Source: a virus (taxonomy: Duplodnaviria > Caudoviricetes). Taken from it: a stretch of 64,000 nucleotides of DNA. A program made the translations under genes and the position numbers. Below, piece after piece: positions 1,031 through 2,786 of this stretch. The first letter of the stretch is position 1. Every line of letters starts with the position of its first letter. The notes beneath the pieces are model-generated. The model did not search any database. It worked only from the letters and a program-made list of their open reading frames with translations, and was not told where the DNA came from. The stretch spans positions 78,783-142,782 of IMG/VR virus record IMGVR_UViG_3300032292_000618, one strand, 5' to 3'.

Positions 1031-1185
1031 TGGATCAACACACCTATGATAATTGGGTGAAAATAAAAGAAACATTTGAAAAATCTGGTAATACCAATAA
1101 TATGTTTTACAAAAGAGCATGTGCTATAATAAAAACTAAAATAGATCCTATGGATAAATTTTGGAGCAACAAAGAAAAAGCTTGA
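1030..1185 (+). CDS. Hypothetical protein, 51 aa (MDQHTYDNWVKIKETFE...)
   Basis: Hand translation; translationally coupled to the upstream ORF. Confidence 0.7.
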   Translation: MDQHTYDNWVKIKETFEKSGNTNNMFYKRACAIIKTKIDPMDKFWSNKEKA

Positions 1186-1210
1186 CCTAACCCCAAGTTT
1201 ATAGTATGAT
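1182..1210 (+). promoter_or_regulatory. Sigma70-type early promoter
   Basis: TTGACC-N17-TATGAT. Confidence 0.7.
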
Positions 1211-1431: not shown

Positions 1432-1503
1432 GGGAGTATAGCTTAATGGTTAGAGCGGGCTCCTTATAAGGGCTTAGTCTGGGTTCAACTCCCAGTATTC
1501 CCA
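1432..1503 (+). tRNA. trnI: tRNA-Ile(UAU)
   Basis: Cloverleaf: acceptor GGGAGTA/TATTCCC, D-loop AATGGTTA, anticodon stem GGCTC/GGGCT with loop CT-TAT-AA (1465-1467), T-arm CTGGG-TTCAACT-CCCAG; no encoded CCA. Confidence 0.92.
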
Positions 1504-1525
1504 TTTGCTATTCGCAAATAGCAAA
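1504..1525. repeat. Perfect 9-bp inverted repeat directly 3' of tRNA-Ile
   Basis: TTTGCTATT-CGCA-AATAGCAAA. Confidence 0.85.
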
Positions 1526-1528
1526 TAT

Positions 1529-1725
1529 AGTCATGGAGAGACTTTAAAAACCCTGGTCGGGATGAACCCCCTTCAGTCATGGAGAGACTTTAAAAATCCT
1601 GGTGGAGTCAATATGACCCTCATTAGGTTTCCAATTTCCTCAAAAAATTGGTGGTGCGGATGGAGGTTACTCCCGCCTGGTTTCCAATTTCCAGTTAAAG
1701 AATTGGTGGCGTGCATGAAAGACCT
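1529..1725 (+). ncRNA. Structured RNA of four tandem H-type pseudoknot + UGGY + hairpin units; 3' half resembles the cyanophage wcaG RNA motif
   Basis: 29-nt direct repeats at 1529-1557 and 1575-1603; GGTTTCCAATTTCC at 1626-1639 and 1679-1692 with loop CCAATT complementary to downstream AATTGG; lies upstream of gmd/fcl, the context described for wcaG RNAs. Confidence 0.75.
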
Positions 1726-1729
1726 AATA

Positions 1730-1756
1730 GGAGAGTTGCATAAACTCTCCTTTTTT
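1730..1756 (+). terminator. Intrinsic terminator closing the tRNA/ncRNA unit
   Basis: GGAGAGTT-GCATA-AACTCTCC-TTTTTT. Confidence 0.85.
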
Positions 1757-1764
1757 AGTATAAT
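1736..1764 (+). promoter_or_regulatory. Sigma70-type promoter for the gmd operon, embedded in the terminator
   Basis: TTGCAT-N17-TATAAT. Confidence 0.65.
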
Positions 1765-1784: not shown

Positions 1785-2786
1785 ATGAAAGTAGCTTTAA
1801 TTACTGGTATCACTGGCCAAGATGGATCGTATCTTGCTGAATTATTACTCCAAAAAGGTTATGAAGTTCATGGCATTATTAGAAGGTCTTCCCTTATCAA
1901 TACGCATCGTATTGATCATGTATATGATTCAATTAATTTGCATTATGGGGACCTTACTGATGCTACGAACTTAGTTAGAGTTATTCAACAAGTTCAACCA
2001 GATGAAATCTATAACCTTGCTGCACAAAGTCATGTAAAGGTATCTTTTGAGATGCCTGAGTACACTGCTGATGTTGATGGTGTTGGCACACTAAGGATCC
2101 TAGAATCAGTTAGGTTGCTTGGTATGGAAGATAAAGTGAGAATCTATCAGGCATCTACATCTGAACTGTATGGACTTGTTCAGGAAATCCCTCAGAAAGA
2201 AACAACACCTTTTTATCCTAGGTCTCCTTATGGTGTTGCTAAGTTATATGCTTATTGGATCACAAAGAACTATAGAGAAGCGTATGACATGTATGCCTGT
2301 ACTGGCATCCTGTTCAATCACGAATCTCCTAGAAGAGGAGAAACATTTGTAACTAGAAAGATTGTTAGAGCACTATCTAAAATTTCTTGTGGTTTGCAAG
2401 ATACATTATATCTGGGCAACCTTAATGCCCAAAGAGATTGGGGTCATGCAAAAGATTATGTAGAAGCAATGTGGTTAATGCTCCAGCAAAAATATGCAGA
2501 TGATTATGTTATTGCAACAGGAGAACAATACTCAGTCAGAGAATTTGTAGATAAAGCAGCACCTTACTTTGGATTTAATATTGAATGGAAAGGTAAATAT
2601 ATGGATGAAGTTGGGATTGATACTAATACTGGAAAAGAGGTTATTAAAGTAGATCCTAAATATTTTAGACCTGCTGAAGTAGAGACTTTGTTAGGTGATG
2701 CCTCTAAGGCAAAAGTTGAATTAGGTTGGGAACCTAAGATTTCATTTGATCAATTAGTTGAGGATATGTGCATTTATGGACAGTAA
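1785..2786 (+). CDS. gmd: GDP-mannose 4,6-dehydratase
   Basis: [58 protein letters not shown]. Confidence 0.97.

Follow-up and report, generated by a model that had tools for sequence, protein, structure and literature searches.

The closest described relative of the RNA reported here is wcaG, a motif rated as a riboswitch candidate by Weinberg and colleagues (Weinberg 2010, PMC2864571). The supplement to that study raises the two UGGYG elements of the motif as a possible site for a dimeric protein, and the accompanying Stockholm file annotates, as SS_cons_1, a pseudoknot of the type found in the last unit of our array. We describe here a locus in which wcaG is the tail of a longer chain of modules, in a 64,000-nucleotide stretch of viral DNA (the window) from a 143-kb IMG/VR virus record. 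The nearest DNA matches of the record by blastn are Synechococcus myoviruses of the Kyanoviridae, and blastn matches fall in 134 Synechococcus phage and four cyanophage records. We favor reading positions 1529 to 1725 as a single structured RNA, modular in design and belonging to the wcaG family, encoded on the + strand, although we hold this reading with somewhat less than even confidence.

Results

Four modules between a tRNA gene and gmd

The array of four units lies between tRNA-Ile(UAU) and gmd (Table 1). A preliminary description had proposed that the units share one architecture in two sequence types, and checking the sequence locates every element that it named, including a UGGY behind each of the four heads (UGGUC 1554, UGGUG 1600, UGGUG 1652-1656, and UGGCG 1707-1711). 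In each unit an H-type pseudoknot whose third loop is rich in A forms the head, and a short unpaired UGGY(G) joins it to a hairpin that serves as the tail; all four heads share this topology, and homologues carry compensatory substitutions in the stems, in agreement with the proposal that stems differ while topology is kept. Stem 1 is the strong one in the A heads of units 1 and 2, and stem 2 in the B heads of units 3 and 4. The two A heads form a 29-nt direct repeat with 97% identity. An open reading frame at 1505-1777 was rejected as a gene, with stops in all six frames in 22 of 35 arrays of at least four modules and an open frame that differs between relatives.

Table 1. Coordinates of the modules and of the flanking features in the window
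Feature	Position	Strand	Details
Putative sigma70-like promoter	1182..1210	+	TTGACC-17-TATGAT; consensus scan, 10/12 matches
Phd-like antitoxin ORF, 63 aa	1232-1423		phrog_375, E 2e-11; Pfam PhdYeFM below cut-off
tRNA-Ile, anticodon UAU	1432..1503	+	Directly upstream of array; Rfam tRNA 65.3 bits; ARAGORN
Perfect 10-bp palindromic hairpin	1503..1526	+	ATTTGCTATT / AATAGCAAAT; gap between tRNA and module 1; inverted repeat
Module 1	1529..1574	+	A-type head, UGGU, minimal t1 tail; model R1 51.5 bits
Unit 1 head	1529-1543		Stem AGTC 1529-1532 / GACT 1540-1543; loop ATGGAGA 1533-1539
Unit 1, remainder	1544-1569		Linker TTAAAAA 1544-1550; CCC 1551-1553; TGGT 1554-1557; hairpin GGG 1559-1561 / CCC 1567-1569
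Module 2	1575..1622	+	A-type head, t2 tail; model R1 47.8 bits
Unit 2 head	1575-1589		Stem S1 1575-1578 / 1586-1589
Unit 2, linker to UGGY	1590-1603		Linker 1590-1596; TCC 1597-1599; TGGT 1600-1603
Unit 2 tail	1607-1617		t2 UGGUGGAGUC; hairpin GTCA 1607-1610 / TGAC 1614-1617
Module 3, first half of Rfam wcaG	1623..1676	+	B-type head, UGGUGCGGAUGG, P2 hairpin 1662-1673
Unit 3 head	1625-1655		Pseudoknot AGG 1625-1627 / CCT 1638-1640; main stem 1631-1637 / 1645-1651; TGGT 1652-1655
Unit 3 P2 hairpin	1662-1673		GGAG 1662-1665 / CTCC 1670-1673
Module 4, second half of Rfam wcaG	1677..1720	+	B-type head, UGGCGUGC tail
Unit 4 head	1677-1710		Pseudoknot CTGG 1677-1680 / CCAG 1691-1694; stem CCAATT 1684-1689 / AATTGG 1701-1706; TGGC 1707-1710
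Intrinsic terminator	1729..1763, including promoter overlap	+	Stem 1729-1751 and U run; terminator scan
Promoter-like element before gmd	1735-1763	+	TTGCAT 1735-1740, 17 nt, TATAAT 1758-1763; overlaps terminator
gmd	1785-2786		Downstream of array

Units 3 and 4 are wcaG, and units 1 and 2 are its uncatalogued kin

The B half had been likened to the wcaG motif, and it is indeed wcaG: RF01761 matches 1623-1720 from end to end (model positions 1-98) with 94.1 bits, the gathering score of the family being 42 bits. The SS_cons_1 pseudoknot, in which nucleotides that precede the second GUUUC pair with the second hairpin loop, is present as CUGG 1677-1680 / CCAG 1691-1694. No Rfam covariance model spans all four units, and the array as a whole is thus not an already catalogued element; units 1 and 2 (1529-1622) match no Rfam 15 family at E<=10 in a 401-nt search. 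The preliminary description also named the ToxI and manA families for comparison, and neither gives an Rfam match; manA RNA (RF01745) has none in the whole window at its gathering score and none in 1400-1800 at E<=10. RF01761 scores pairs of A and B modules from other loci at 41.7-49 bits, and Weinberg's raw alignment (PMC2864571) contains rows in which an A head occupies the position of P1, which together argue that the A modules are divergent kin of wcaG and not a separate invention. Units 1 and 2 are therefore uncatalogued sister modules. What was known is the B half, and what is new is the A half as a variant within the wcaG family; in the literature searched we found no arrays of two to five modules, no free combination of heads and tails, and no open reading frames between modules.

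The A-type head is conserved, and its pseudoknot partner differs from that first proposed

Sequence similar to the A half lies upstream of the wcaG RNA in the cultured phages DSL-LC03, S-CREM1, S-RIM4, and SynMITS9220M01 (blastn), and when IMG/VR was scanned for the tail CCCTGGTCGGGATG, at least 120 stretches matched, some 65 of which are AT-rich contigs of cyanophages that share this layout. We gathered 92 distinct A copies from cyanomyovirus contigs, and model R1 was built from an alignment (A2) of 93 A units. With 42 distinct sequences aligned solely on the tail and the loop GG, the four S1 pairs are paired in 86-100% of sequences, as compared with 2-57% for most pairs in slid controls, and compensatory types are frequent (C:G 35 and G:C 6; U:A 35 and A:U 6; A:U 23 and C:G 13). 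With the tail as the only anchor, S1 pairing amounts to 98-100% of the 42 copies. Across A2, 93.7% of cells are paired versus 72.4% in shuffles, and none of 500 shuffles reached the covariation score. Model R1 recovers both window copies at E ~1e-13 (bit scores in Table 1), and in the 143-kb phage record it finds no copy besides these two. The R1 scores, the lack of any other copy in the phage record, and the stem covariation together indicate that the A-unit pattern is more than a chance arrangement.

The preliminary description paired the GG of the A loop with the downstream (C/T)CC, and here the comparative evidence points elsewhere. These bases are invariant, except that the second C is an A in 14-17 of the 92 copies (giving xAC before UGG), so that a GG:CC pairing gains no support from covariation and is broken in the xAC copies. 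Covariation instead assigns the loop partner to the base just 5' of CCC, which forms pair 8:29 with loop position 2 (C:G 58, U:A 34, unpaired 0). In a longer, 38-nt class of heads the next base 5' pairs with loop position 5 (pair 11:28; G:C 26, A:U 25, U:A 5, unpaired 0), and loop position 6 is paired in half of the copies. The window heads belong to a short, 36-nt class, in which the covariation-supported pairs are U1534:A1550 and U1580:A1596 only. Both window copies have the full set of A-type features, namely a 4-bp stem, a 7-nt loop nYGGnnn, an A-rich linker, a purine opposite loop position 2, (N)CC, and UGGU. The A head combines a strong hairpin stem with a pseudoknot reduced to one to three pairs. 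The invariant loop bases G3 and G4 sit between supported pairs, and the invariance of GG and CCC is not explained by pairing.

B-head pseudoknots, strand, and folding

In the B heads, the trinucleotide that precedes UUU pairs with the 5' end of the hairpin loop. Heads of the module 3 type have GAG/CUC, AGG/CCU, or UGG/CCA at these positions, and heads of the module 4 type show at least six pair types over 64 copies, including UGG/CCA, AGG/CCU, CUG/CAG, CAG/CUG, UAG/CUA, and GAG/CUC. The wobble counts in stems (26 G:U against 0 A:C), the tail helix, in which CGGG pairs with CUCG or CCUG, and the position of the terminator fix the strand as +. Folding energies relative to shuffles (z of +0.39 for the + strand and -2.13 for the - strand) show no gain over shuffles for the + strand and are uninformative for pseudoknots, and the structural evidence is comparative and not thermodynamic. 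In four RNA runs, contigs of relatives alone were recovered; their summed depth peaks over 1524-1739, a profile from contigs that cannot show level, ends, or strand.

Modules combine freely and are confined to cyanomyovirus-type DNA

Five tail types were distinguished: t1, UGGUCGGGAUG with a hairpin and CYYG; t2, which is the tail of module 2 and recurs across many loci; t3, the module 3 tail with its hairpin; t4, UGGCG(A/U)GC; and t5, UGGUGGAGCUAAGCAG. Heads and tails mix freely in arrays of two to five modules, and the window array uses two head types and four tail types. The commonest order is A:t2 A:t1 B:t3 B:t4, and the window order, A:t1 A:t2 B:t3 B:t4, is common to three close relatives. 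Head 1 in those relatives is a different A head, of the 38-nt class, which suggests that the window's head 1 was copied recently from head 2.

In a sample anchored on the wcaG core, 85 copies have sufficient sequence on their 5' side, and 78 of these are preceded by A modules on the same strand, no more than 700 nt away. The A modules directly adjoin wcaG in about half, and in the other half an insert of 235-550 nt carries a small open reading frame, with products that include a phrog_2318 membrane protein, phrog_35121, an MTPYELRF family, and DUF6171. The phrog_2318 protein (75-79 aa, with two membrane helices) is encoded between A and B modules at L128:4137-4361 (-) and about 30 other loci, its AUG lying 2-3 nt past the tail hairpin of the A module and its stop codon inside the next B head. 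Before the MTPYELRF frames, (AC)n-rich leaders such as ACACACAUACACACA separate the A-module tail from the GGAG ribosome-binding site (loci L145, L154, L183, L198, and L207).

A pattern of 22 specified bases has a single match in 185,579 species genomes and more than 120 in metagenomes. The genome match (L228; PCAW01000016.1, 380-760, - strand) lies on a 25-kb contig of a metagenome-assembled genome labelled as a Methanobacteriota archaeon, and since it consists of a cyanophage-type A:t1-B:t2 array followed by a MATKGT small gene, the contig is probably mis-binned phage DNA. A search for homologues of the gmd product returned metagenome and phage proteins only. The modules are conserved, covarying, freely combining, and confined to cyanomyovirus-type DNA.

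Transcription signals and neighbors of the window array

The promoter at 1182..1210 is likely the start of a transcript that carries the Phd-like frame, tRNA-Ile, and the array. The Phd-like frame heads this transcript with its own promoter upstream and has no toxin gene downstream, and a 'prevent host death' gene is likewise near in phage DSL-LC03. The UAU anticodon of tRNA-Ile is unusual for bacteria-type decoding of AUA. The palindromic hairpin that separates this tRNA from module 1 is missing from the closest relatives (L049, L055, and L084), where the tRNA-to-array gap is 0 nt. Further upstream, an open-ended frame at 2-529 resembles the C-terminal portion of an outer-membrane porin from cyanobacteria, and a terminator-like hairpin lies downstream of it at about 553-580.

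At the other end of the array, the terminator is overlapped by the promoter-like TTGCAT-17-TATAAT, from which we infer that gmd has its own promoter. The -35-like hexamer lies in the loop of the terminator hairpin and TATAAT follows the U run. A T run occurs 39-50 nt past the last UGG in about half of all arrays, and the terminator/promoter layout recurs in L002 (~1704-1740) and L003 (~1710-1745), with a perfect TTGACA-17-TATAAT, and in L005, with a TTGCAT-17-TATAAT identical to that of the window. Such a layout resembles that of T4-type phages, in which promoter-early stem-loops border mobile cassettes of small genes.

Module boundaries and the riboswitch interpretation

Among 164 distinct A units, the next element is another module in 110 and the start of an open reading frame in 52, typically as UGGUCGGGAGCAAACCCCUU-AUG. 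These 52 units end 9-25 nt or slightly more upstream of the start codon, and GGGAG lies within the tail hairpin. This placement is the reason for retaining a model in which the modules are tandem riboswitch aptamers, whose binding of a small molecule or ion would remodel the tail hairpin over the ribosome-binding site, or a downstream terminator such as the one that follows the window array. The candidate rating of wcaG in 2010 is in keeping with this model, as are the small size of the H-type pseudoknots, their A-rich third loop, and the many invariant unpaired bases. We nonetheless consider it unlikely: the neighbors are of many kinds (GDP-fucose genes, 2OG oxygenases, small membrane proteins, and tRNAs), several arrays have only a tRNA downstream, 36-63 nt away, gmd appears to have its own promoter beyond the terminator, and we see no conserved anti-terminator pairing. 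A 2017 survey, moreover, found very few riboswitches in phages.

The same boundaries invite a second model, in which the modules would be punctuation or processing elements that delimit the units of polycistronic early transcripts, with host RNases, which would cut or protect them, as their sole partners. The modules do sit exactly at boundaries (tRNA/module, stop codon/module, and module/AUG), and the tail hairpins start right after a U, as is frequent among RNase P substrates. Plain processing signals rarely need pseudoknots with so many invariant bases, however, and we regard this model as improbable.

Proximity to tRNAs

Arrays also occur within tRNA clusters, with a tRNA ending 0-1 nt before the array in nine loci and starting 36-63 nt after it in eight. 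The antiterminator bulge of T-box leaders carries a UGGN that pairs with the NCCA end of a tRNA, and by analogy UGGU and UGGC could pair with ACCA and GCCA ends, so as to sense, hold, or protect tRNA ends or to mark trailers for processing. The presence of UGGN between two helices in every module and the frequent start of arrays 0-1 nt past a tRNA fit such docking. So does the complementarity, scored against phage tRNAs, of the t1 tail to the 3' ends of tRNA-Pro (10-11 of 11 positions) and of UGGUGGAG to the CUCC-ACCA end of phage tRNA-Ala copies in these loci, an end shared by tRNA-Ala generally. When compared with 297 phage tRNA ends, the tails score no higher than random 7-mers rich in G (the best Watson-Crick match is 8-10 of 11, and the null gives 9-10 in 66% of trials), and tail 7-mers do not covary with the acceptor strands of co-resident tRNA-Gly or tRNA-Pro. 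The bases after UGGN are already paired inside the tail hairpin, the T-box models of Rfam find nothing in 1400-1800 at E<=10, nor was a Stem I-like element or specifier recognized there, and the loci contain no tRNA genes with an encoded CCA matching the tails. Docking of tRNA 3' ends is, in our view, quite unlikely. A more specific version, with modules as portable sensors or docks for NCCA ends, UGGU serving A73 and UGGC serving G73 tRNAs, and with acceptor-tuned tails (for tRNA-Pro and tRNA-Ala), seems to us slightly more doubtful still. If it were true, a lytic cyanophage would carry a T-box-like, multi-site RNA that binds tRNA ends, and early gene expression or tRNA handling would be coupled to the state of the host tRNA pool.

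Proximity to manA

A manA RNA adjoins the array in some phages. A 2026 preprint reports that manA RNA forms homo-oligomeric cages, with assemblies of 8, 10, and 60 copies for manA RNAs of these phage regions. By analogy the array might be a self-assembling RNA scaffold, and the near-palindromic t4 tails (GGCGAGCC and GUGCAUG) are of interest in this respect. The widely varying number and order of modules fit a fixed assembly geometry poorly, and we think a scaffold highly improbable.

Discussion

The nature of the array and of its settings leads us to favor, tentatively and with confidence just below even, a model in which the modules are portable docking units for one shared, putative partner and not a riboswitch for gmd. 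Three considerations favor this model: a single-stranded UGGY(G) is conserved between two helices, the number and order of modules vary while the modules themselves stay constant, and the neighbors are very different (tRNAs, small open reading frames, and terminators). In the window, transcription would begin at the 1182-1210 promoter, on the evidence of its consensus match, and the array would be co-transcribed with the Phd-like frame and tRNA-Ile. Its 5' end would be freed by 3' processing of the tRNA and its 3' end set at the terminator (1729-1757); ending there, the array would be insulated from gmd, which would be served by its own promoter. The UGGY(G) between two helices would be the recognition element for the shared partner, for which the candidates are an RNA-binding protein that forms oligomers and the 3' end of an RNA, and modules in series would offer it a multivalent platform for docking. 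In other phages, wherever an open reading frame directly adjoins a module, the tail hairpin would cover the ribosome-binding region and the same partner could control translation; the window array, which has no inserted frame, would act on the transcript of which it is part, or else titrate that partner. The multivalent protein-binding sponge put forward in the preliminary description is a plausible, if putative, reading. We note that the invariant single-stranded bases and the A modules at start codons count against docking, in that they would fit a ligand-sensing riboswitch equally well.

These observations recast wcaG, an orphan riboswitch candidate since 2010. The catalogued motif corresponds to the last two units of a modular chain that has a second head type with its own covarying pseudoknot and whose modules stand beside small genes and tRNAs. 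The functional unit is probably a single module of pseudoknot, UGGY, and hairpin, and the gmd and fcl genes are probably not the target of a wcaG-family array. Multivalent binding, of protein or of tRNA ends, is now a concrete hypothesis. Aquatic metagenomes contain the modules in abundance; they look phage-restricted, and they may constitute a widespread phage device for the handling of early transcripts.

Several known systems offer partial likenesses. Small riboswitches of the preQ1-I and SAM-II classes also combine a short hairpin and an A-rich 3' tail with a mini-helix between the loop and the end of the tail, and they often occur in tandem; the array has different conserved bases and no Rfam match to these classes. 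The ToxI antitoxins of type III systems are likewise tandem, pseudoknot-forming units in phage-related DNA, whereas the units here are non-identical and have no Rfam match to ToxI at E<=10, and among the frames inspected (Phd-like upstream, gmd downstream) none beside the array is toxN-like. The likeness to T-box leaders, which we treat as a lead, lies in a single-stranded UGGN between two helices and near tRNAs; the array differs in having no recognized Stem I or specifier and in residing in a phage of cyanobacteria. The nearest system remains wcaG, although its published model and description cover two modules only and do not include the A head, which lacks GUUUC and has instead a strong 4-bp hairpin, the loop nYGGnnn, and a pseudoknot of one to three pairs followed by CCC. 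Units 3 and 4 share with wcaG the two UGGYG elements, the P2 hairpin, and the pseudoknotted second hairpin, and the setting in T4-like cyanophages and marine DNA is shared as well.
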